Shown: positions 7,258-63,606 of the stretch, in pieces
Numbering within the stretch: the stretch's first letter is position 1
Layout: every line of letters begins with the position of its first letter
Assembly (NCBI RefSeq): GCF_024223415.1
Contig: NZ_CP100502.1
Reading direction: 5' to 3' (one strand)
DNA: 64,000 nt
From: Escherichia coli
Lineage (GTDB): Bacteria; Pseudomonadota; Gammaproteobacteria; Enterobacterales; Enterobacteriaceae
Made by a program: the position numbers and the translations under genes
The notes under the pieces: generated by a model
Seen by the model: the letters and a program-made list of their open reading frames with translations, nothing else
The model's database searches: none
Told to the model about the DNA's origin: nothing

Positions 7258-8271
7258 CTACCTCTCACTAGTGAGGGGCGGCAGCGCATCAAGCGGTGAG
7301 CGCACTCCGGCACCGCCAACTTTCAGCACATGCGTGTAAATCATCGTCGTAGAGACGTCGGAATGGCCGAGCAGATCCTGCACGGTTCGAATGTCGTAAC
7401 CGCTGCGGAGCAAGGCCGTCGCGAACGAGTGGCGGAGGGTGTGCGGTGTGGCGGGCTTCGTGATGCCTGCTTGTTCTACGGCACGTTTGAAGGCGCGCTG
7501 AAAGGTCTGGTCATACATGTGATGGCGACGCACGACACCGCTCCGTGGATCGGTCGAATGCGTGTGCTGCGCAAAAACCCAGAACCACGGCCAGGAATGC
7601 CCGGCGCGCGGATACTTCCGCTCAAGGGCGTCGGGAAGCGCAACGCCGCTGCGGCCCTCGGCCTGGTCCTTCAGCCACCATGCCCGTGCACGCGACAGCT
7701 GCTCGCGCAGGCTGGGTGCCAAGCTCTCGGGTAACATCAAGGCCCGATCCTTGGAGCCCTTGCCCTCCCGCACGATGATCGTGCCGTGATCGAAATCCAG
7801 ATCCTTGACCCGCAGTTGCAAACCCTCACTGATCCGCATGCCCGTTCCATACAGAAGCTGGGCGAACAAACGATGCTCGCCTTCCAGAAAACCGAGGATG
7901 CGAACCACTTCATCCGGGGTCAGCACCACCGGCAAGCGCCGCGACGGCCGAGGTCTTCCGATCTCCTGAAGCCAGGGCAGATCCGTGCACAGCACCTTGC
8001 CGTAGAAGAACAGCAAGGCCGCCAATGCCTGACGATGCGTGGAGACCGAAACCTTGCGCTCGTTCGCCAGCCAGGACAGAAATGCCTCGACTTCGCTGCT
8101 GCCCAAGGTTGCCGGGTGACGCACACCGTGGAAACGGATGAAGGCACGAACCCAGTGGACATAAGCCTGTTCGGTTCGTAAGCTGTAATGCAAGTAGCGT
8201 ATGCGCTCACGCAACTGGTCCAGAACCTTGACCGAACGCAGCGGTGGTAACGGCGCAGTGGCGGTTTTCAT
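7258..8271 (-). CDS. intI1: Class 1 integron integrase
   Basis: 337-aa ORF beginning [49 protein letters not shown]. Confidence 0.95.
8156..8184 (+). promoter_or_regulatory. Integron cassette promoter Pc, weak variant (-35 TGGACA, 17-bp spacer, -10 TAAGCT); P2 inactive (14-bp spacer between TTGTTA and TACAGT)
   Basis: Hexamers read directly inside the intI1 coding region; no GGG insertion between TTGTTA and TACAGT near 8290. Confidence 0.7.
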
Positions 8272-8289
8272 GGCTTGTTATGACTGTTT

Positions 8290-8410
8290 TTTTGTACAGT
8301 CTATGCCTCGGGCATCCAAGCAGCAAGCGCGTTACGCCGTGGGTCGATGTTTGATGTTATGGAGCAGCAACGATGTTACGCAGCAGGGCAGTCGCCCTAA
8401 AACAAAGTTA
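8290..8410. other. attI1 recombination site region
   Basis: Sequence ending CCCTAAAACAAAGTTA at the cassette boundary upstream of dfrA1. Confidence 0.6.
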
Positions 8411-8427
8411 ACCTCTGAGGAAGAATT

Positions 8428-8901
8428 GTGAAACTATCACTAATGGTAGCTATATCGAAGAATGGAGTTATCGGGAATGGCCCTGATATTCCATGGAGTG
8501 CCAAAGGTGAACAGCTCCTGTTTAAAGCTATTACCTATAACCAATGGCTGTTGGTTGGACGCAAGACTTTTGAATCAATGGGAGCATTACCCAACCGAAA
8601 GTATGCGGTCGTAACACGTTCAAGTTTTACATCTGACAATGAGAACGTAGTGATCTTTCCATCAATTAAAGATGCTTTAACCAACCTAAAGAAAATAACG
8701 GATCATGTCATTGTTTCAGGTGGTGGGGAGATATACAAAAGCCTGATCGATCAAGTAGATACACTACATATATCTACAATAGACATCGAGCCGGAAGGTG
8801 ATGTTTACTTTCCTGAAATCCCCAGCAATTTTAGGCCAGTTTTTACCCAAGACTTCGCCTCTAACATAAATTATAGTTACCAAATCTGGCAAAAGGGTTA
8901 A
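8428..8901 (+). CDS. dfrA1: Trimethoprim-resistant dihydrofolate reductase DfrA1 (gene cassette)
   Basis: 157-aa ORF with GTG start, [52 protein letters not shown]. Confidence 0.9.
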
Positions 8902-11208: not shown

Positions 11209-14200
11209 ATGCCCGTTGACTTTCTGACCACTGAGCAGACTGAAAGCTATGGCAGATTCACCGGTGAACCGGATGAGCTTCAGCTGGCACGATATTTTCA
11301 CCTTGATGAAGCAGACAAGGAATTTATCGGAAAAAGCAGAGGTGATCACAACCGTCTGGGCATTGCCCTGCAAATTGGATGTGTCCGTTTTCTGGGCACC
11401 TTCCTCACCGATATGAATCATATTCCTTCCGGCGTCCGGCATTTTACCGCCAGACAGCTCGGGATTCGTGATATCACCGTTCTTGCAGAATACGGTCAGA
11501 GGGAAAATACCCGCCGTGAGCATGCAGCGCTGATACGTCAGCACTATCAGTATCGTGAATTTGCCTGGCCCTGGACATTTCGCCTTACCCGTCTTTTATA
11601 TACCCGGAGCTGGATAAGCAACGAACGTCCTGGCCTGCTTTTCGATCTGGCGACAGGGTGGCTTATGCAACATCGTATTATTCTCCCCGGAGCCACTACG
11701 CTGACCCGGTTGATTTCAGAGGTAAGGGAAAAGGCGACGTTGCGCCTGTGGAACAAACTGGCACTGATACCGTCAGCCGAACAGCGTTCACAGCTGGAGA
11801 TGCTGCTGGGGCCAACTGATTGCAGCCGCCTGTCTTTACTGGAATCACTGAAAAAGGGCCCTGTGACCATCAGTGGTCCGGCGTTTAATGAAGCAATTGA
11901 ACGCTGGAAAACTCTGAACGATTTTGGCCTGCATGCTGAAAACCTGAGTACACTCCCGGCTGTGCGCCTGAAAAATCTCGCACGTTATGCTGGTATGACT
12001 TCGGTGTTCAATATTGCCAGGATGTCACCGCAGAAAAGGATGGCGGTTCTGGTTGCCTTTGTCCTTGCATGGGAAACGCTGGCGCTGGATGATGCATTGG
12101 ACGTTCTGGACGCCATGCTGGCCGTTATCATCCGTGACGCCAGAAAGATTGGGCAGAAAAAACGGCTCCGCTCGCTGAAGGATCTGGATAAATCTGCATT
12201 GGCGCTCGCCAGCGCATGTTCGTACCTGCTGAAAGAAGAAACACCGGACGAATCGATTCGTGCTGAGGTGTTCAGCTACATCCCAAGGCAAAAGCTGGCT
12301 GAAATCATCACGCTTGTCCGTGAAATTGCCCGGCCCTCAGACGATAATTTTCATGAAGAAATGGTGGAGCAGTACGGGCGCGTTCGTCGTTTCCTGCCCC
12401 ATCTGCTGAATACCGTTAAATTTTCATCCGCACCTGCCGGGGTTACCACTCTGAATGCCTGTGACTACCTCAGCCGGGAGTTCAGCTCACGGCGGCAGTT
12501 TTTTGACGACGCACCAACGGAAATTATCAGTCGGTCATGGAAACGGCTGGTGATTAACAAGGAAAAACATATCACCCGCAGGGGATACACGCTCTGCTTT
12601 CTCAGTAAACTGCAGGATAGTCTGAGGCGGAGGGATGTCTACGTTACCGGCAGTAACCGGTGGGGAGATCCTCGTGCAAGATTACTACAGGGTGCTGACT
12701 GGCAGGCAAACCGGATTAAGGTTTATCGTTCTTTGGGGCACCCGACAGACCCGCAGGAAGCAATAAAATCTCTGGGTCATCAGCTTGATAGTCGTTACAG
12801 ACAGGTTGCTGCACGTCTTTGCGAAAATGAGGCTGTCGAACTCGATGTTTCTGGCCCGAAGCCCCGGTTGACAATTTCTCCCCTCGCCAGTCTTGATGAG
12901 CCGGACAGTCTGAAACGACTGAGCAAAATGATCAGTGATCTACTCCCTCCGGTGGATTTAACGGAGTTGCTGCTCGAAATTAACGCCCATACCGGATTTG
13001 CTGATGAGTTTTTCCATGCTAGTGAAGCCAGTGCCAGAGTTGATGATCTGCCCGTCAGCATCAGCGCCGTGCTGATGGCTGAAGCCTGCAATATCGGTCT
13101 GGAACCACTGATCAGATCAAATGTTCCTGCACTGACCCGACACCGGCTGAACTGGACAAAAGCGAACTATCTGCGGGCTGAAACTATCACCAGCGCTAAT
13201 GCCAGACTGGTTGATTTTCAGGCAACGCTGCCACTGGCACAGATATGGGGTGGAGGAGAAGTGGCATCTGCAGATGGAATGCGCTTTGTTACGCCAGTCA
13301 GAACAATCAATGCCGGACCGAACCGCAAATACTTTGGTAATAACAGAGGGATCACCTGGTACAACTTTGTGTCCGATCAGTATTCCGGCTTTCATGGCAT
13401 CGTTATACCGGGGACGCTGAGGGACTCTATCTTTGTGCTGGAAGGTCTTCTGGAACAGGAGACCGGGCTGAATCCAACCGAAATTATGACCGATACAGCA
13501 GGTGCCAGCGAACTTGTCTTTGGCCTTTTCTGGCTGCTGGGATACCAGTTTTCTCCACGCCTGGCTGATGCCGGTGCTTCGGTTTTCTGGCGAATGGACC
13601 ATGATGCCGACTATGGCGTGCTGAATGATATTGCCAGAGGGCAATCAGATCCCCGAAAAATAGTCCTTCAGTGGGACGAAATGATCCGGACCGCTGGCTC
13701 CCTGAAGCTGGGCAAAGTACAGGTTTCAGTGCTGGTCCGTTCATTGCTGAAAAGTGAACGTCCTTCCGGACTGACTCAGGCAATCATTGAAGTGGGGCGC
13801 ATCAACAAAACGCTGTATCTGCTTAATTATATTGATGATGAAGATTACCGCCGGCGCATTCTGACCCAGCTTAATCGGGGAGAAAGTCGCCATGCCGTTG
13901 CCAGAGCCATCTGTCACGGTCAAAAAGGTGAGATAAGAAAACGATATACCGACGGTCAGGAAGATCAACTGGGCACACTGGGGCTGGTCACTAACGCCGT
14001 CGTGTTATGGAACACTATTTATATGCAGGCAGCCCTGGATCATCTCCGGGCGCAGGGTGAAACACTGAATGATGAAGATATCGCACGCCTCTCCCCGCTT
14101 TGCCACGGACATATCAATATGCTCGGCCATTATTCCTTCACGCTGGCAGAACTGGTGACCAAAGGACATCTGAGACCATTAAAAGAGGCGTCAGAGGCAG

Positions 14201-18597: not shown

Positions 18598-19446
18598 ATG
18601 AATAATGATGAGCTGGCCACCAGACGTGCGCAGGCGATTGCCGAAGACAGGTGTTTCTCGAAAGGACGTTTGCGCGATGAATTCAGAATGAAACCAGCCC
18701 CCGGTGCTGAGCCGGTTAAGTGGTATAAAAATAGTTATGGTGGCAGGTTCGCTGTATACCGAATTGCAGACTGTGTTCCGATGCGTGAGAAACGCCCTCT
18801 GACGAGTAAACAACAGCTGGCTGGCCAGCGGCTTTCCGTTTTATCCCGACTAAACAGCACCAGTGGCCGGATGGCACGGCAGGCATATGACTGGCTGAGT
18901 CTGGCACCACTCTTTCTGGATACTGAAACGACAGGACTGGATAATACCGCGGAAGCCCTGGAAATCGGCCTGACCGATGCGGCCGGTCAGGTGGTATTTG
19001 AAACCAGGCTGAAGCCCACGGTCGCCATCGGGGCGCAGGCCGCCGCCGTGCATGGTATCAGTGAGCAGGCTCTCTGCGGCGCACCATCATGGACAGATGT
19101 GGCGCGGCAACTGCGTCATGCAATCGGGGACCGACCAGTAATTATCTTTAATGCCCGGTTCGACATCCGCATTCTGAAACAGACTGCTGCCGCACATAGC
19201 GATCCGGCTGACTGGCTGGAAGAACTGACGGTATATTGTGCGATGGAGCTGGCTGCAGGATATTATGGGGCCACCAACCGCTATGGCACGATTTCACTGG
19301 CCTGTGCTGCCAGTCAGGCCGGACTGACCTGGGAAGGGCAGGCACACTCAGCGATCGCCGACGCACGGATGACGGCAGGGGTGGTAAACGCTATTGCTGC
19401 ATATCATCTGGAACTGCTGCAGGAACAGGCACGGCTGAAAATCTGA
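18598..19446 (+). CDS. DEDD-family 3'-5' exonuclease (DnaQ-like) with N-terminal extension
   Basis: Exo I motif FLDTETTGL; 282 aa; strong SD AAGGAGA. Confidence 0.75.
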   Translation: MNNDELATRRAQAIAEDRCFSKGRLRDEFRMKPAPGAEPVKWYKNSYGGRFAVYRIADCVPMREKRPLTSKQQLAGQRLSVLSRLNSTSGRMARQAYDWLSLAPLFLDTETTGLDNTAEALEIGLTDAAGQVVFETRLKPTVAIGAQAAAVHGISEQALCGAPSWTDVARQLRHAIGDRPVIIFNARFDIRILKQTAAAHSDPADWLEELTVYCAMELAAGYYGATNRYGTISLACAASQAGLTWEGQAHSAIADARMTAGVVNAIAAYHLELLQEQARLKI

Positions 19447-23909: not shown

Positions 23910-25790
23910 ATGTCTGACCCTGTACGTATTACAAATCCCGGTGCAGAATCGCTGGGATATGATTCAGATGGCCATGAAATTATGGCCGTTGATATTTATG
24001 TAAACCCTCCACGTGTCGATGTCTTTCATGGTACCCCGCCTGCATGGAGTTCCTTCGGGAACAAAACCATCTGGGGTGGAAACGAGTGGGTCGATGATTC
24101 CCCAACCCGAAGTGATATCGAAAAAAGGGACAAGGAAATCACAGCGTACAAAAACACGCTCAGCGCGCAGCAGAAAGAGAATGAGAATAAGCGTACTGAA
24201 GCTGGAAAACGCCTTTCTGCGGCAATTGCTGCAAGGGAAAAAGATGAAAACACACTGAAAACACTCCGTGCCGGAAACGCAGATGCCGCTGATATTACAC
24301 GACAGGAGTTCAGACTCCTGCAGGCAGAGCTGAGAGAATACGGATTCCGTACTGAAATCGCCGGATATGATGCCCTCCGGCTGCATACAGAGAGCCGGAT
24401 GCTGTTTGCTGATGCTGATTCTCTTCGTATATCTCCCCGCGAGGCCAGGTCGTTAATCGAACAGGCTGAAAAACGGCAGAAGGATGCGCAGAACGCAGAC
24501 AAGAAGGCCGCTGATATGCTTGCTGAATACGAGCGCAGAAAAGGTATTCTGGACACGCGGTTGTCAGAGCTGGAAAAAAATGGCGGGGCAGCCCTTGCCG
24601 TTCTTGATGCACAACAGGCCCGTCTGCTCGGGCAGCAGACACGGAATGACAGGGCCATTTCAGAGGCCCGGAATAAACTCAGTTCGGTGACGGAATCGCT
24701 TAAGACGGCCCGTAATGCATTAACCAGAGCTGAACAACAGCTGACGCAACAGAAAAACACGCCTGACGGCAAAACGATAGTTTCCCCTGAAAAATTCCCG
24801 GGGCGTTCATCAACAAATCATTCTATTGTTGTGAGTGGTGATCCGAGGTTTGCCGGTACGATAAAAATCACAACCAGCGCGGTCATCGATAACCGTGCAA
24901 ACCTGAATTATCTTCTGACCCATTCCGGTCTGGACTATAAACGCAATATTCTGAATGACCGGAATCCGGTGGTGACAGAGGATGTGGAAGGTGACAAGAA
25001 AATTTATAATGCTGAAGTTGCTGAATGGGATAAGTTACGGCAACGATTGCTTGATGCCAGAAATAAAATCACCTCTGCTGAATCTGCGATAAATTCGGCG
25101 AGAAATAACGTCAGTGCCAGAACAAATGAACAAAAGCATGCAAATGACGCTCTTAATGCCCTGTTGAAGGAAAAAGAGAATATCCGTAGCCAGCTTGCTG
25201 ACATCAATCAGAAAATAGCTGAAGAGAAAAGAAAAAGGGATGAAATAAATATGGTAAAGGATGCCATAAAACTCACCTCTGATTTCTACAGAACGATATA
25301 TGATGAGTTCGGTAAACAAGCATCCGAACTTGCTAAGGAGCTGGCTTCTGTATCTCAAGGGAAACAGATTAAGAGTGTGGATGATGCACTGAACGCTTTT
25401 GATAAATTCCGTAATAATCTGAACAAGAAATATAACATACAAGATCGCATGGCCATTTCTAAAGCCCTGGAAGCTATTAATCAGGTCCATATGGCGGAGA
25501 ATTTTAAGCTGTTCAGTAAGGCATTTGGTTTTACCGGAAAAGTTATTGATCGTTATGATGTTGCTGTGGAGTTACAAAAGGCTGTAAAAACGGACAACTG
25601 GCGTCCATTTTTTGTAAAACTTGAATCACTGGCAGCAGGAAGAGCTGCTTCAGCAGTTACAGCATGGGCGTTTTCCGTCATGCTGGGAACCCCTGTAGGT
25701 ATTCTGGGTTTTGCAATTATTATGGCGGCTGTGAGTGCGCTTGTTAATGATAAGTTTATTGAGCAGGTCAATAAACTTATTGGTATCTGA
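23910..25790 (+). CDS. cib: Pore-forming colicin of the Ia/Ib group (immunity partner favours Ib)
   Basis: 626-aa ORF MSDPVRITNPGAESLGYDSDGHEIMAVDIYVNPPRVDVFHG...; hydrophobic channel domain at C-terminus. Confidence 0.9.
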   Translation: MSDPVRITNPGAESLGYDSDGHEIMAVDIYVNPPRVDVFHGTPPAWSSFGNKTIWGGNEWVDDSPTRSDIEKRDKEITAYKNTLSAQQKENENKRTEAGKRLSAAIAAREKDENTLKTLRAGNADAADITRQEFRLLQAELREYGFRTEIAGYDALRLHTESRMLFADADSLRISPREARSLIEQAEKRQKDAQNADKKAADMLAEYERRKGILDTRLSELEKNGGAALAVLDAQQARLLGQQTRNDRAISEARNKLSSVTESLKTARNALTRAEQQLTQQKNTPDGKTIVSPEKFPGRSSTNHSIVVSGDPRFAGTIKITTSAVIDNRANLNYLLTHSGLDYKRNILNDRNPVVTEDVEGDKKIYNAEVAEWDKLRQRLLDARNKITSAESAINSARNNVSARTNEQKHANDALNALLKEKENIRSQLADINQKIAEEKRKRDEINMVKDAIKLTSDFYRTIYDEFGKQASELAKELASVSQGKQIKSVDDALNAFDKFRNNLNKKYNIQDRMAISKALEAINQVHMAENFKLFSKAFGFTGKVIDRYDVAVELQKAVKTDNWRPFFVKLESLAAGRAASAVTAWAFSVMLGTPVGILGFAIIMAAVSALVNDKFIEQVNKLIGI

Positions 25791-25807: not shown

Positions 25808-26155
25808 TCATTTTCCTGAAAGGGCTTTGCAGAGTATAAAAATTAAGTAAATGGCAACCACAGGAACTGATATAACGAAACAGAATAATTCAAATATTGC
25901 AGTTAAGCTTCCGCCAACTGGATTTGTAAAGAAGTCTTTTTGCCAGAATTCTTTCCCTGTAAACCTTATTACCATTTTCTGTATTATCCTCATTGAAAAA
26001 GGAAAAGTAATGGCACTGATAATGCATCCGATGAACGCATAAAACATTCTTGCATTTTCCTGGTTATCTTTCCATCCCAGATAAAAAACTGTAAGAATAA
26101 TGAGGATTGGTATCAGGCTTTTCAGTAAATACTTTACAGATATATCCAGTTTCAT
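25808..26155 (-). CDS. imm: Colicin Ib-type immunity protein (inner membrane)
   Basis: 115-aa hydrophobic ORF convergent with the colicin gene. Confidence 0.8.
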   Translation of the reverse strand: MKLDISVKYLLKSLIPILIILTVFYLGWKDNQENARMFYAFIGCIISAITFPFSMRIIQKMVIRFTGKEFWQKDFFTNPVGGSLTAIFELFCFVISVPVVAIYLIFILCKALSGK

Positions 26156-26641: not shown

Positions 26642-27232
26642 TTACGGAGCGGCACTTTCATTTATCTGTACGCGAACCTCCATTCCTGCATCGTGACAGG
26701 CCTGCAGCCACTGCGCCACTTCCAGCGGATCGCCCTCCCGGCGTACCACCCTGCCTTCTTTATTCCATAACTGCAGACAGGTGCTGCCGTCTAGACGCAC
26801 CACAAAATCCCCACGGCAGGCCTGATACGTTATGCCGTTCAGTTGCACCGCCAGATCAGTGGCAGAAGTGCCATCTGCGGGCAGACCTGCTGCCGGGACC
26901 AGCGGCAGTACGACGACTTCTGCCGCACGCTGTTCTGCCCGGAGGCGGTCCTGTTCTGCCAGCAGCAGAGGCTGTGCCACGGCCCGGCCGGCGTCCGTCA
27001 GCTCTACTGCCAGCTGCAGGTTCGGAGCGCGCAGGGTACGCAGCCAGCCGGCATCCTCCAGACGACGGCAGGAGGCGCGCAGGTTTGGCCCGTAGACCGG
27101 GGCTTCCCCGCTTCGCTCCAGCACCCGTTCTATGTCCCGCGTCAGCACGGGTCCTGGCCGTTTTTCATCAAGGGCAGCCAGCACAATCAGCACTCTCCGC
27201 TGCAGTGGCGACGGTCGGCGGCTCTGGGTCAT
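26642..27232 (-). CDS. Hypothetical protein with winged-helix-like N-terminus; markedly GC-rich gene
   Basis: 196-aa ORF; noticeably more GC-rich than flanking DNA; start overlaps stop of upstream ORF. Confidence 0.55.
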   Translation of the reverse strand: MTQSRRPSPLQRRVLIVLAALDEKRPGPVLTRDIERVLERSGEAPVYGPNLRASCRRLEDAGWLRTLRAPNLQLAVELTDAGRAVAQPLLLAEQDRLRAEQRAAEVVVLPLVPAAGLPADGTSATDLAVQLNGITYQACRGDFVVRLDGSTCLQLWNKEGRVVRREGDPLEVAQWLQACHDAGMEVRVQINESAAP

Positions 27233-27489
27233 TACCTGTCATCCTCCGGCCAGATGAGGTTTCTGAGGCGCTGAAAGTCGGCGTCAATGAGCTCCTGTCT
27301 CTTTATGGCATTCATTGAGGCATAGCCATTTATGGCCAGTTCATGCCAGAAGATCAGCACGGCTCCGGCTTTGGCTGACTCGCAGAGATAAATCGCGCCC
27401 TGGCTGTCCAGATTGCATTCCCGGATGCGTCGTTCCGCAAACCGGGTCAGTTGTTCATAGCTGAGTGAAAACGTCATTTCCTGATCCAT
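27232..27489 (-). CDS. Hypothetical small protein, first gene of a two-gene operon
   Basis: 85-aa ORF translationally coupled to the downstream gene. Confidence 0.5.
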   Translation of the reverse strand: MDQEMTFSLSYEQLTRFAERRIRECNLDSQGAIYLCESAKAGAVLIFWHELAINGYASMNAIKRQELIDADFQRLRNLIWPEDDR

Positions 27490-27839
27490 CCTGCACGCTC
27501 CATCTGATAATATTCTGACAGGTAATAATCATATCCTGAATGATTTGTGTGCTCCTGATTTCTGATAATATCAGATATGGTTTTATCATCAATGATGAAA
27601 ATCATATCTGATATGATTTTATGTGTATTTTTTATTATCATATCATTTGCGTCTTTTCTGCCGCGCAGATCCGGTTTCCGGCGGTTCCGGAGATTTAAAT
27701 TCCATCGGTACTGACAGGGCGTTAAACACAGGTATTATCGAACGGTTCTGTTTTCTAATGCTAAGCTTCAAACCAGCTGCCCATGCCGTCAATACAGATG
27801 CACCGATGCGCTTGCGTGGCTTTTCAGGGAGATAAAGTT

Positions 27840-28841
27840 ATGGCCGATCCATTCAATCTGCAGACCGATGTGGTCAGGCAGCATACGGTTCCCCGTTTTT
27901 TACTGAAGCATTTCAGTACGCCGGGAAAGGGTAAGCGGCAGCGCTTATACGCCTTTGACAAGGCTGCCGGGCGCGCCTATGCCACCACGCCGGATGACGC
28001 GACCGTCCGCAACACGTTCTACAACCTCGATAATCACCCGGACCGTCTGAGTCTTGAACCACTGCTGGGGATTTACGAGCACCACGCGGCACCGGTAATT
28101 GCAGCCCTGCTGGCGCACAGGGATATTCGCAGGCTGACAGATGATGAACGCTACAGGCTGGCCGTGTTTGTTGCCGTGCAGCGCGCACGAACCTTCGGTG
28201 AACTGGAGCGTATCTCAGGCATGATTTCGGTGCTTACCGATAAGATGGAGGCCATCGGCTCGACTAAAGAGCAGGCCATGGAAACCCTGGGCCTGTCGTC
28301 CGGGGGCGATACCAAGGATATTTTTCTGCGGCAGCTCGTCCAGCAGGTGTCACATATTGATCTCCTGCTGAAAAAGGACTGGTACCTTCTGGAAACCAGG
28401 CCAGAACGTCCGTTTTACGTATCAGACAATCCCGTAGTGCTTAAGAACAGCAATGACTTCGGTCCGTACGGTAATCTTGGTCTGGCCGTTCGCGGGATAC
28501 AGATTTACCTCCCCCTGTCATCGACGCTGATGCTGGCCATGTATTGCCCCTCCATCCGTGAACAGATGGTTCGTCAAAAGCAGCATCTTCAACATCTGCT
28601 CGCCAGGGCGCCGCATCTTATCCCCCGTCACATTCGGCCTTTTGAAAGACTGGAACATATCCGGAGGTATACGGACTATCTTCTTATGCCGCTTACCCCG
28701 GAGCATGTCACGCATTACAATTCCCTGCAGGTGGAGTTCGCGGAGCAGTACGTGTTCTGCGGTGAAAAGGATTTCTCTCTGGTTGAGAGAATGCTGGCCG
28801 ATAGTGAACGCTACCGGACTGGCCCGCGGTTTACGTTTTAG
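27840..28841 (+). CDS. DUF4238-family protein, candidate single-gene anti-phage defence
   Basis: N-terminal HTVPRFLLKHF matching the DUF4238 signature; 333 aa from MADPFNLQT with SD GGGAG. Confidence 0.65.
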   Translation: MADPFNLQTDVVRQHTVPRFLLKHFSTPGKGKRQRLYAFDKAAGRAYATTPDDATVRNTFYNLDNHPDRLSLEPLLGIYEHHAAPVIAALLAHRDIRRLTDDERYRLAVFVAVQRARTFGELERISGMISVLTDKMEAIGSTKEQAMETLGLSSGGDTKDIFLRQLVQQVSHIDLLLKKDWYLLETRPERPFYVSDNPVVLKNSNDFGPYGNLGLAVRGIQIYLPLSSTLMLAMYCPSIREQMVRQKQHLQHLLARAPHLIPRHIRPFERLEHIRRYTDYLLMPLTPEHVTHYNSLQVEFAEQYVFCGEKDFSLVERMLADSERYRTGPRFTF

Positions 28842-29016
28842 TCCGAATTCCGGCCTCACCTGTGCCGGAAAATGACGGCGGGAGCCCCTGTTGTACAGAG
28901 GAGTTTTGCCGTGTTGCACCCACGCGAAAGCGGCAGTGGTCACAGGGACCACCGCCGTAAGGAGATGGTGAGTATCTGTTGACATTCACCATCAGTTCGT
29001 GTAGCGTTGCGGCTAC

Positions 29017-29361
29017 TTACTTTAGCAGAGTAAATCTTCGGCAAGTGGCGGTAACCACTTTACCGATACCCCAGAGTAGTCCGCGCTTTACTGGCGTGAC
29101 CCATAGTGCCGAAACCGCAAATTTCGACACTATAAAGGCCTTCAGCCAGGGCACTACAAACCAGACCACCGCAGCACAGAGACCCACATAGGCCATAAGA
29201 AGCAAAATACAGAGACAGGCGCTCCAGTATTGCTTCTGGCAAATATGGTCCCTGGTTCCGATAACCAGGCGTTTAACGGTGGAGAAAATCGTCCAAATAA
29301 AATGGATTTCAGTCTGGAATGGGAATAGAACCGTTCCCTCGGTGTCTAACAAGTTTTTCAT
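29017..29361 (-). CDS. Predicted small membrane protein
   Basis: 114-aa ORF with SD GGGAGG 7 nt upstream; two hydrophobic helices. Confidence 0.4.
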   Translation of the reverse strand: MKNLLDTEGTVLFPFQTEIHFIWTIFSTVKRLVIGTRDHICQKQYWSACLCILLLMAYVGLCAAVVWFVVPWLKAFIVSKFAVSALWVTPVKRGLLWGIGKVVTATCRRFTLLK

Positions 29362-29859
29362 AGAACCCTCCCGGGTAAGTATTTACAAAAGTAACTGTCT
29401 TGATTTTGGTCATCTCAATAACCTCGTTTTTAAGTCAAAAGGCACCCGGCGCCTCACACACGTGAACGCTGTTAATGCCGTACAGAATGTTTTATCTTTC
29501 AGCTCTGTTATGATGTGTTCATTCGCATCCTCCTGTTTGTCATACCGATTTTAAGCTCGTTCCGGGGGCTCCCCGGAAAAAAATCCAAAAAAATCCGGGC
29601 CGGAATGGTGATAACCAGTCTGGCGGGAAATAAACGGATCTTGTTGGGGTGGAGCGGGACGGAACAATACTATGAGAGTAATGTTAACAGAAATCACCGC
29701 CTTTGTCAAGGCGCACTTATCCATTAAAGCAACTATAGCATAGTAATACTGATGTCAATTTAGCAAAAAGTGCTATCCGTCGTTCTGCTGTATGTCTATT
29801 TTCCTTCACCTCCGGGCAACCTGGCGAATACATTTTTACTTTTTTTGCCCCCTGCCCCC

Positions 29860-30114
29860 TCAGAGTACCGAGACGAAGAGATGTGTGGCCACGCCCTGCC
29901 GGCGTCCGGTAAACGGCCCCTGCGCCGTACCCGCTGACAGCCGGCATTTTCGCCCGGAACGGGTGAAGGCTGACTTGAGCGATTTGGAGGCCTCCCGCAG
30001 CGCATCCTCAAGACCGGTGTTCAGACAGAGCCTCACCACCGCCCCTGAAGGGAGACGGGCAATCTCCGCGAAACTCTCTCCGCCGGTAACATAGCGGCTC
30101 TGTCGTCCTTTCAT
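29860..30114 (-). CDS. Small GC-rich ORF downstream of the 308-aa gene
   Basis: 84-aa ORF with SD AGGAGG. Confidence 0.35.
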   Translation of the reverse strand: MKGRQSRYVTGGESFAEIARLPSGAVVRLCLNTGLEDALREASKSLKSAFTRSGRKCRLSAGTAQGPFTGRRQGVATHLFVSVL

Positions 30115-30158: not shown

Positions 30159-31085
30159 TTACAGCAGGTTTTCTTCCACCACGTTGATCAGCGCCTGAGC
30201 GACATCCCCGAGCGGGGTGGGATTGTGATCTTCTTCCACACCGTTGGTGTAAAGGTGAAGCTCACACACCCCGTCCACAAAACGGAAGGCCTTGTCCCAC
30301 CTGTCGGGTTCGGCGCTGATCAGGGCGCTGTAGCCCGGATCGGCGGTAAAGAGGCGGTATTCAAGCTCCGGGAACGGGATGTTCCACATCTGGGTGGCGT
30401 AATTTTCCGGGAGGCTCAGTGTAACGCGCCATGCGCCGCGGGCGTAATTTTCCGGGCGGTAGATACGCACCGTGATGCCATCCCGCGTCCAGCTGTCGCC
30501 GGTGAGGGCAGGCAGTTTTTTCAGGGCGCGGATGGCCTCGATATCTTGGTAAAAGCGGTGTTTTTTTTCCCTCAGTTGCGAGTAGAAGATATTTTTCCAG
30601 GCCTGGTCGATGGTTTCCCTGTCCCGGCCGGCGATCTCGGCAAACAGGGAGAAGGTCAGGGAGATCCCGCGCGGGATATTTTTCCACCCCTTAAGCACCT
30701 GGTCGGCACGGACCTGCAGGAAGGGGGTGTTGTTCAGTACCAACCGGCGGAGCTCCTCTTCCGTCGAGATCCCCAGCAGCTTCTGGTATTCCTGATTCCA
30801 GCGGGTGATAAAATGGCTCTGGTAGCGCTGCTCCATGACCTTAGCGTCCAGATAACTGGCCAGCTCCTCATCCAGGGAGGCGATGAGCGGGTTCTTCAGG
30901 GCAAAGCTGTCGATGACGTCGCGGAAGCTGTCTTCCAGGAACTCACGCAGAAACGTCGCCTTTGGCTTACGGGCGTGGCTTGCCAGGTCGGTGATCACCC
31001 GGTCGGTGTCAGCGGGGATGTTCCGCAGGGTATACGTTACGCTCTCTCCACCGTCGTTTGTCATGTCATGTTCTTTTTCACTCAT
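30159..31085 (-). CDS. Hypothetical protein with ribbon-helix-helix-like N-terminus and uncharacterised C-terminal domain
   Basis: 308-aa ORF; N-terminal VTYTLRNIPADTDRVITDLASHARKPKATFLREFL. Confidence 0.55.
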   Translation of the reverse strand: MSEKEHDMTNDGGESVTYTLRNIPADTDRVITDLASHARKPKATFLREFLEDSFRDVIDSFALKNPLIASLDEELASYLDAKVMEQRYQSHFITRWNQEYQKLLGISTEEELRRLVLNNTPFLQVRADQVLKGWKNIPRGISLTFSLFAEIAGRDRETIDQAWKNIFYSQLREKKHRFYQDIEAIRALKKLPALTGDSWTRDGITVRIYRPENYARGAWRVTLSLPENYATQMWNIPFPELEYRLFTADPGYSALISAEPDRWDKAFRFVDGVCELHLYTNGVEEDHNPTPLGDVAQALINVVEENLL

Positions 31086-62353: not shown

Positions 62354-62644
62354 GACAAAGTCTCCATTTCTGGAATTTAAATCAAACGGAAAGGTTAAAA
62401 ATTTATTTGCAGGCGATAAGAGCTAACCAGAGGAATTAGCCGTGCGATAAAAGGATTGTTGCAGATACGAAAGTCGTTAGAATAGCTGCGGGCGCTTGAG
62501 GCTGTATGCCGAAAGCGTTTTGTGGACGGTATACAGCAGAAAGCCCCTGGAGATTTTTTTATCAATCAACCAAGGGCTCTACTGTAATGCCTAGACAACA
62601 TTATAGTAGCCCGATAACCGCCGTAAGGCAATGGAGGGGCTATG

Positions 62645-62797
62645 ATGCCACAGCGAACGTTTTTAATGATGTTAATCGTCATCTGTGTGACGATTCTGTG
62701 TTTTGTCTGGATGGTGAGGGATTCGCTTTGCGGACTCCGGCTCCAGCAGGGAAACACAGTGCTTGTGGCAACGTTAGCCTACGAAGTTAAACGTTAA
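62645..62797 (+). CDS. pndA: Hok-family toxin PndA (type I toxin-antitoxin); overlapping pndC-like frame and antisense RNA expected upstream
   Basis: 50-aa MPQRTFLMMLIVICVTILCFVWMVRDSLCGLRLQQGNTVLVATLAYEVKR; below the size cutoff of the ORF track. Confidence 0.85.
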   Translation: MPQRTFLMMLIVICVTILCFVWMVRDSLCGLRLQQGNTVLVATLAYEVKR

Positions 62798-63120: not shown

Positions 63121-63606
63121 CGGATTTTCTCTCTGTATTTATGGGTAGTTATCGAACTGAATGTGCCAGTTTTTTCAGGAGACGGCAAAGTTGAGATGAT
63201 TGGTTCTGATTCAGAGCATGAGTTTCCTCGGTGTGACGGGCATGTCGGGCGGATTTTGAGAAACAACAGATGTAAAAAAACCGACTGGTGAGGTCGGTTT
63301 TTTTACTGTTCCGTTACAGAGTGGGTGGCCCTGACCGGAGGAAATCTCTTTTCAACTAACGTTCTTATAATAGCGAGCTGTTCATTTGATAGCAACCATC
63401 CTTATAATCCGCAGGTTAGCTCTGTCTGGCGACACTTCTGCCGTGATATCCATCGGGACTATGGATGCAAGATTTTAAGTCCTGGCTGAACAAACAGGTG
63501 GTGCTGTGTTCAGTGCTCTGGCAGGAGGAAGTCTCTTTTCAACTAACACTGAAAGTGCCGTTGTGACAGGCAATGTAAGAGTAAGCAACGGTGATTTCCT
63601 CCAGTG

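Follow-up and report, generated by a model that had tools for sequence, protein, structure and literature searches.

Within a 64,000-nucleotide window of contig NZ_CP100502.1 (Escherichia coli, RefSeq assembly GCF_024223415.1), representing a ColIb-type IncI1 plasmid, we examined a plus-strand gene encoding a protein of the DUF4238 family, together with the abi/ibfA gene that converges on it (Table 1). As an earlier note made from the sequence alone (hereafter the original prediction) had described, this 333-residue open reading frame (ORF) carries the motif HTVPRFLLKHF, at residues 15-25 of its product, and lies between the colicin operon and the partition loci, with the colicin Ib and immunity genes on its upstream side and ParA and ParM on its downstream side. 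The protein and WP_000774874.1 of ColIb-P9 (NC_002122, nt 12224-13225) have the same sequence. A second in-frame ATG occurs upstream at 27783; the start at 27840 is favoured because homologues from many genera share its methionine, while the sequence upstream of it differs or is unrelated between genomic contexts.

Given that its upstream neighbour is divergent and its downstream neighbour convergent, the DUF4238 gene is monocistronic, and it is preceded by its own ribosome-binding site (RBS), again as originally described. The further description of the gene as stand-alone holds for its transcription and for its mobility, a 1.25-kb block carrying DUF4238 only having been found (see below), but not for its habitual linkage to abi on ColIb-type plasmids. 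A putative sigma-70-like promoter site, identified by its match to consensus, also occurs upstream of orthologues in an Enterobacter hormaechei island (L076) and a Klebsiella pneumoniae plasmid (L087). At the position of the RBS, five other contexts carry GAGAGAT, GGGAGAT or TGGAGAT, and the cassette shared by IncI-variant and IncFIA plasmids (L004, L008, L074) possesses the unrelated leader AAGGATGAT. Two hairpins immediately 3' of the gene form a probable terminator of the cassette, although they were not flagged in a terminator scan; of five intergenic regions compared, all but that of E. hormaechei L076 keep a TTTTGCC run.

Table 1. Features of the DUF4238-abi locus and of the surrounding plasmid, in window coordinates.
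Feature	Position	Strand	Basis or remark
DUF4238 gene (333 codons + stop)	27840-28841	+	ORF
Promoter-like site, CTGACA-16-TATTAT	27711-27738	+	Consensus scan; 10/12 consensus matches, ~100 nt 5' of ATG
RBS, AGGGAGA	27826-27832	+	Read from sequence; 7 nt 5' of ATG
Hairpins 3' of DUF4238: TTCCGGC...GCCGGAA, then CCCCTGT..ACAGAGG + TTTT	28848-28908	+	By eye
Conserved 3' region of abi module: two hairpins (abi strand), promoter-like site (opposite strand)	28930-29016	-	
abi/ibfA, small hydrophobic protein (114 residues), convergent	29017-29361	-	175 bp downstream of DUF4238; = ColIb-P9 (NC_002122) nt 13401-13745
84-residue orphan gene, upstream of abi	29860-30114	-	
308-residue orphan gene, upstream of abi	30159-31085	-	
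85-residue gene	27232-27489	-	
196-residue gene	26642-27232	-	
Colicin Ib (626-residue ORF)	23910-25790		
Colicin Ib immunity gene	25808-26155		
ParA	~32990		Downstream of DUF4238
ParM	~34443		Downstream of DUF4238
DEDDh 3'-5' exonuclease (282 residues)	18598-19446	+	PADLOC DEDDh E 8e-29, PDC-S48 E 8e-22
sok antitoxin RNA (hok/sok-type post-segregational killing)	62490-62647	+	Rfam, 134 bits
AgrB antisense RNA	63272-63359	-	Rfam, 55 bits

Conservation of the DUF4238 protein and its relation to an anti-T7 protein

Profile hidden Markov model (HMM) searches confirmed the assignment to DUF4238 suggested from the motif: the protein matches PF14022 with E 8.9e-42 (143.9 bits), its residues 13-310 covering model positions 1-280 of 281, which is essentially full length. 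PF14022 was precomputed on all 120 homologues among the matches listed, bar one fragment. The family comprises 2,817 representative clusters at E <= 0.001, and its members among the matches listed are mostly single-domain proteins of 310-350 residues; the ColIb protein likewise combines a single-domain architecture of ~300-350 residues with the family fold. Across 49 diverse sequences, down to 20% identity, residues H15, L22, F25, E73, R117, D196, P198, N294 and F312 are invariant, D40, K41, Y61, E80, Q114, K179, N203, C236 and Q297 are almost so, and conservation reaches 90% or more at V17 and P18. The polar invariants (H15, E73, R117, D196, N294) therefore suggest an enzyme, this conserved set resembling a putative active site.

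An AlphaFold2 model of the protein was obtained at a mean predicted local distance difference test (pLDDT) score of 83.7 and a predicted template modelling (pTM) score of 0.82, and no solved structure was found that resembles the protein. Searches directed at an HNH relationship returned no HNH family in Pfam, where DUF4238 was the sole listed match even at E <= 10, and no HNH protein from the PDB with either full-length or N-terminal profiles; the N-terminal profile retrieved only PF14022 proteins from 5.8 billion proteins. No hydrophobic segment, as might be expected of a membrane-active effector, was found in the protein. Across six contexts the ratio of nonsynonymous to synonymous substitution rates (dN/dS) of the gene is 0.12-0.20, at synonymous divergences (dS) of up to 0.65, and DUF4238 is thus under strong purifying selection.

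One member of the family has been validated experimentally. Rousset et al. (2022) reported that a single DUF4238 protein from a P2-prophage hotspot of E. coli TA007 (pFR101) confers strong resistance to T7, and gave its molecular function as unknown (PMC9122126). The original prediction had placed single-gene DUF4238 systems among defence candidates from phage-satellite hotspots; the existence of a single protein validated against T7 agrees with this, its source being a P2 phage hotspot and not a satellite hotspot (PMC9122126). Using the TA007 sequence taken from Table S2 of that study, we aligned 249 residues with the ColIb protein by BLASTP at 25% identity (E 8e-07), and profile comparison with hhalign gave a probability of 93.4% (E 2.5e-07).

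The adjacent abi gene and the T5/BF23 phenotype

The 114-residue ORF converging on DUF4238 coincides in map position with ibfA in the annotation of ColIb-P9 (PMC8004404), and the 89-residue Swiss-Prot entry ABI_ECOLX has its residues 1-71, unchanged, at positions 18-88. The two sequences differ at both ends, probably owing to sequencing errors made in 1988. The ORF is labelled 'abortive infection protein' in some plasmid records and is often unannotated or 'hypothetical' in RefSeq. A hydrophobic stretch spanning ~residues 44-86 of its product fits the membrane depolarisation that has been reported for abortive infection (PMC10644984). Based on the ibfA map position, the identity to ABI_ECOLX and this hydrophobic stretch, the T5/BF23 phenotype of ColIb has an assigned gene other than DUF4238, and abortion of these phages belongs primarily to the neighbouring abi gene. 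The original prediction had overlooked this ORF in offering DUF4238 as a candidate explanation for the phenotype, and that part of it is not sustained. The Abi family comprises 107 clusters confined to Enterobacterales; dN/dS of abi is 0.32-0.74, with length kept at 114 residues. Both abi and DUF4238 are real genes, DUF4238 being the more constrained of the two.

Between the two genes, the 3' region of the abi module (28930-29016) is conserved in five contexts. It contains two hairpins, CGGCAGTGGTC-ACAGG-GACCACCGCCG and GATGGTGA-N14-TCACCATC; in Serratia the stem of the latter has a compensatory change. A promoter-like site, TTGACA-17-TAGCGT, lies within the same region on the plus strand and points antisense into abi; in the manner of type I toxin-antitoxin systems, it could specify a putative antisense RNA that controls a small membrane toxin.

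Upstream of abi, the 84- and 308-residue orphan genes travel with it in most plasmid contexts, being found in IncI1, IncFIB and IncFIA/FII plasmids as well as in the E. hormaechei island. Neither matched NCBIfam, PHROG or PADLOC models, and the 308-residue protein, the only one of the two scanned against Pfam, had no match there. The ~500 bp separating the 84-residue gene from abi (29362-29869) contains no convincing ORF, and is conserved with abi in Serratia (to 29869) and Citrobacter (to 29596). This segment may contain a promoter, form an extended leader, or encode a small RNA or protein that has escaped annotation.

Separable cassettes and their defence neighbourhoods

Homologues of Abi (61-100% identity) were identified convergent to a 333-residue DUF4238 gene in seven contexts: ColIb IncI1 plasmids; IncI variants, whose upstream cargo consists of GmrSD, DUF3800 or HEPN-RES/YobI/PIN genes; an island in the Citrobacter freundii chromosome that carries Bil-like and UvrD-PDDEXK genes; an integrase island of E. 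hormaechei adjoining HipA; a Serratia marcescens contig (82.7 kb) carrying a different colicin and a KAP NTPase; and Cronobacter IncFIB and Klebsiella IncFIA/FII plasmids. The C. freundii and S. marcescens contexts are without the 84- and 308-residue genes. Blastn comparison places the start of the common block 16-56 bp 5' of the DUF4238 ATG (27784 in C. freundii, 27824 in S. marcescens) and its end at 29596 or 29869. Close relatives of DUF4238 sit amid defence genes in every context found, their neighbours including GmrSD, HEPN-RES, YobI ATPase, PIN/MazE and NACHT in the IncI variants, Bil-like E2/multi-ubiquitin, UvrD-PDDEXK and PIN_12 in C. freundii, and HipA with an integrase (E. hormaechei) or a KAP NTPase (S. 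marcescens) elsewhere.

Closer inspection of these loci revealed that both genes can be inherited without the other. A DUF4238-only block of 1,245 bp, which starts 185 bp 5' of the ATG and ends 58 bp beyond the stop codon, is 99.4% identical between IncI-variant and IncFIA plasmids (L074 4816-6060 compared with L004 7816-9059); the IncFIA copy adjoins Ppl (1,826 bits) and is without abi, and the DUF4238-only form was found in ~100 complete E. coli genomes. Among more distant relatives, abi was lacking in all 57 genome loci with DUF4238 homologues of 60% identity or less. Conversely, one abi homologue of 54% identity has neither DUF4238 nor DUF4145 nearby, and in plasmids of Leclercia and Enterobacter kobei a DUF4145 protein occupies the place of DUF4238, convergent to abi (L084 1492-2247, L086 3384-3992). 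These slot occupants match the PD-T7-4 model weakly (E 0.002-0.006). PD-T7-4 is an anti-T7 system. At the DUF4145/DUF4238 junction homology stops ~87 bp past the abi stop codon, leaving the 28930-29016 region with abi. The replacement of DUF4238 by DUF4145 beside abi thus marks this site as a defence slot whose content can be exchanged. When identities between pairs of contexts were compared for DUF4238 and Abi (five contexts), they correlated poorly (r 0.22), giving no support for tight co-evolution; no antitoxin-like partner is conserved with DUF4238. An obligate two-gene DUF4238-Abi system was considered as the principal reading and rejected, since DUF4238-only blocks and abi-DUF4145 pairs exist; to judge from these comparisons, DUF4238 and abi look like cassettes that lie side by side in a defence hotspot and can be exchanged independently, rather than an obligate two-gene machine.

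Searches of PLSDB with tblastn recovered DUF4238 in 703 plasmids and abi in 459. The region was present in 297 of 5,426 complete E. coli genomes, 188 of which carry both genes, and 305 of its 310 places were plasmid-borne. A different organization was observed in Pectobacterium and Pantoea (L013 and L017), where the DUF4238 protein is 59-60% identical and a DUF2971 protein matching PADLOC PDC-S31 (E 1.3e-50) is encoded directly upstream on the same strand; DUF2971 and DUF4238 may constitute a different two-gene arrangement in that subclade.

Elsewhere in the window, the 196-residue protein encoded between the immunity gene and DUF4238 matched phrog_19460 (E 3.5e-07) and, weakly, a JetA model (E 0.0037). 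The AT-rich divergent region upstream of its operon (27558-27620) holds two near-perfect palindromes, AAAATCATATC-T-GATATGATTTT and ATTTCTGATA-A-TATCAGATAT. We rejected these as a DUF4238 operator: by homology they group with the divergent 85- and 196-residue genes, and are therefore probably the operator of that operon. A class 1 integron signature at 7258-8901, consisting of a minus-strand 337-residue ORF beside an Rfam attI/AAC_AAD_leader match (8361-8432, 70.6 bits) followed by a 157-residue cassette ORF, represents a resistance insertion absent from ColIb-P9. The DEDDh exonuclease gene is located in an accessory region downstream of the yacAB toxin-antitoxin genes.

Interpretation and comparison with known systems

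Taken together, these findings lead us to favour, with moderate confidence, the view that the DUF4238 gene is an autonomous defence cassette, made up of one gene and directed against phage, that occupies a plasmid defence slot, and that its product is a cytoplasmic enzyme. On this model, a cytoplasmic single-domain DUF4238 protein would be made from its own promoter, and the cassette would fill the defence slot of IncI1/ColIb-type plasmids beside abi/ibfA while remaining genetically separable from it. By analogy with the distantly related P2-hotspot protein that stops T7, the ColIb protein is predicted to block phage, plausibly through enzyme action involving the invariant H15, E73, R117, D196 and N294. 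One candidate activity is that of a nuclease whose N-terminal histidine motif would be HNH-like and which would act once a phage component has been sensed. Our best guess for the target is T7-like phages. This link is a weak analogy, drawn because a distant relative blocks T7, because the alternative occupant of the slot is PD-T7-4-like, because the Col-type IncI1 plasmids of Hiley et al. are without the T7-exclusion gene pifA of R64 (PMC8004404), and because a PADLOC scan of ten other large ORFs of the window (~11-39 kb) identified no known defence protein beyond the generic DEDDh exonuclease.

Several observations weigh against an autonomous defence cassette. The PADLOC model for the TA007 system (PDLC03000, DUF4238-Pers) matches the ColIb protein only at E 0.0084 (13.6 bits) and over residues 174-233, and membership of a curated defence model is thus not borne out. 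Considered with the BLASTP and hhalign results, this weak match indicates that the ColIb and TA007 proteins belong to homologous but distant subfamilies, and that the phenotype of the latter is therefore not simply transferable. The protein matched no NCBIfam or PHROG model, and tblastn of 50,697 phage records found no DUF4238 relative. PADLOC-matching neighbours occur at only 3 of 15 distant DUF4238 loci (PDC-S39; PDC-S31; Old with a reverse transcriptase), and the family-wide association with defence is therefore modest. The recurrent convergent pairing with Abi, in seven contexts, would also fit a functional partnership. Of the original prediction, the proposal of a plasmid-borne anti-phage defence candidate accordingly stands with respect to the family and the defence neighbours, but not with respect to T5/BF23 or to a curated model.

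A plasmid function unrelated to defence (as a toxin for stability or addiction, by interfering with conjugation or with rival plasmids, or as a metabolic or regulatory enzyme), set in surroundings that are merely a variable accessory region, would be in keeping with a very large and mostly chromosomal family, with the 12 of 15 distant loci that have no recognisable defence neighbour, with a match in Pfam alone and none in curated defence, phage or NCBI family models, and with the toxin-antitoxin and partition genes also held in the neighbourhoods. We nevertheless regard it as unlikely, given that a member of the family cloned alone protects against T7 (PMC9122126), that close relatives are found repeatedly beside bona fide defence genes (Ppl, GmrSD, Old, reverse transcriptase and KAP NTPase), that the gene is exchanged at its slot for another of defence type, DUF4145, and that DUF4238 has no conserved antitoxin-like partner.

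The readings that remain tie DUF4238 to the classical ColIb phenotypes. A two-gene abortive-infection system, in which DUF4238 would act as a cytoplasmic sensor or activator, possibly the ibfB complementation group, that detects the pre-early protein A2 of T5/BF23 and activates Abi, with collapse of the membrane potential, draws on the literature as well as on the locus. The title of Uemura & Mizobuchi (1982), as cited in PMC12111858 and PMC10644984, names two ColIb genes, ibfA and ibfB, of which only ibfA appears on the ColIb-P9 map (PMC8004404), and a 2023 paper describes the ibf/abi gene products and their mechanism as still unidentified (PMC10644984). Furthermore, two of the seven convergent contexts (the C. 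freundii chromosome and S. marcescens) share no other ColIb neighbours, the block shared in blastn (27840 to ~29596) spans both genes, their dS values are similar, and the hydrophobic stretch of Abi suits the reported depolarisation. We consider such a system doubtful, however, as the genes are convergent and form no operon, DUF4238 moves and persists without abi (in the IncFIA block and the E. coli genomes noted above), abi pairs with DUF4145 instead or, in its 54% homologue, with neither gene, protein divergences are poorly correlated, and the 308- and 84-residue genes accompany abi no less faithfully and are ibfB candidates of equal merit. It is far less probable that DUF4238 alone determines the abortion of T5/BF23, as first proposed. 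Its position in a ColIb-specific region near the mapped abi locus and the presence of a validated single-gene defence in the family (PMC9122126) are consistent with that role, but the Swiss-Prot entry and the ColIb-P9 annotation assign abi/ibfA to the adjacent ORF, DUF4238 has no hydrophobic segment to account for membrane damage, and the validated relative acts on T7. More broadly, DUF4238 might be a second phage-exclusion determinant of ColIb, either as ibfB sensing A2 and switching on Abi, or as an unmapped T7-inhibiting gene such as that implied by the title of Duckworth & Pinkerton (1988), which refers to ColIb genes inhibiting T5 and T7 (cited in PMC8004404); we advance this only tentatively, and think it rather improbable. 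If the ibfB identification were correct, one small membrane effector would receive its signal from either of two interchangeable sensors, the abi-linked DUF4238 and DUF4145 proteins, and convergent genes would make up a modular sensor-effector design.

The abortion of T5/BF23 by ColIb is among the oldest described abortive-infection systems, and our results fix its physical layout, with abi/ibfA as the 114-residue ORF and the DUF4238 gene convergent to it. Hundreds of plasmids already have the gene under the RefSeq label 'DUF4238 domain-containing protein', and defence-system lists already include the family; the ColIb protein is a new, divergent member of this known defence-listed family. What is new here is the position of DUF4238 relative to the historic abi gene, the boundaries of the cassettes, the DUF4238/DUF4145 swap, and a shortlist of three candidates for the second ColIb determinant (DUF4238, the 308-residue gene and the 84-residue gene). 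If active, DUF4238 would represent an extra phage barrier in ~3-5% of complete E. coli genomes and on ~700 sequenced plasmids, many of them resistance plasmids of poultry, livestock and patient origin, and this barrier would be relevant to phage therapy and phage typing. The ColIb protein would then also offer a second point of access, highly divergent from the first, to a large family (~2,800 clusters).

Among the closest known systems is that of TA007, which DefenseFinder and PADLOC name 'DUF4238' and with which the ColIb gene has in common PF14022, a single domain of ~310-330 residues that acts or is encoded alone, and the motifs H-x-(V/L)-(P/S)-x-x-(L/Y)-L-K-x-F, LE where the long helix begins, QR, DW-L, SDNPV and P(L/V)S. 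Both genes are located on mobile elements amid other defence genes; unlike the prophage-borne TA007 gene, however, that of ColIb is plasmid-borne, the C-terminal ~80 residues do not align, and T7 resistance was shown with the TA007 protein. With Abi/IbfA of ColIb, which mediates abortive infection of T5/BF23 triggered by the phage protein A2, DUF4238 shares the plasmid, a 1.7-kb segment, usual co-inheritance in Enterobacterales and a presumed phage-exclusion function, but the two are unrelated, Abi being a hydrophobic protein of 114 residues encoded on the opposite strand in its own transcript, and the pair is separable by recombination. A protein of the same name, IbfA of R64/pUA1135 (HEC-04, ABC-ATPase + TOPRIM), is likewise encoded by an IncI1 gene in the equivalent variable region and has a BF23-inhibition phenotype (PMC12111858, PMC8004404), but this 518-residue ATPase-TOPRIM protein has no sequence identity to either ColIb gene product and belongs to 'Delta'-type rather than 'Col'-type IncI1 plasmids. 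Finally, the PD-T7-4-like DUF4145 genes have no sequence relationship to DUF4238 but occupy the same position convergent to abi, which suggests that the two are interchangeable cargo of one slot.

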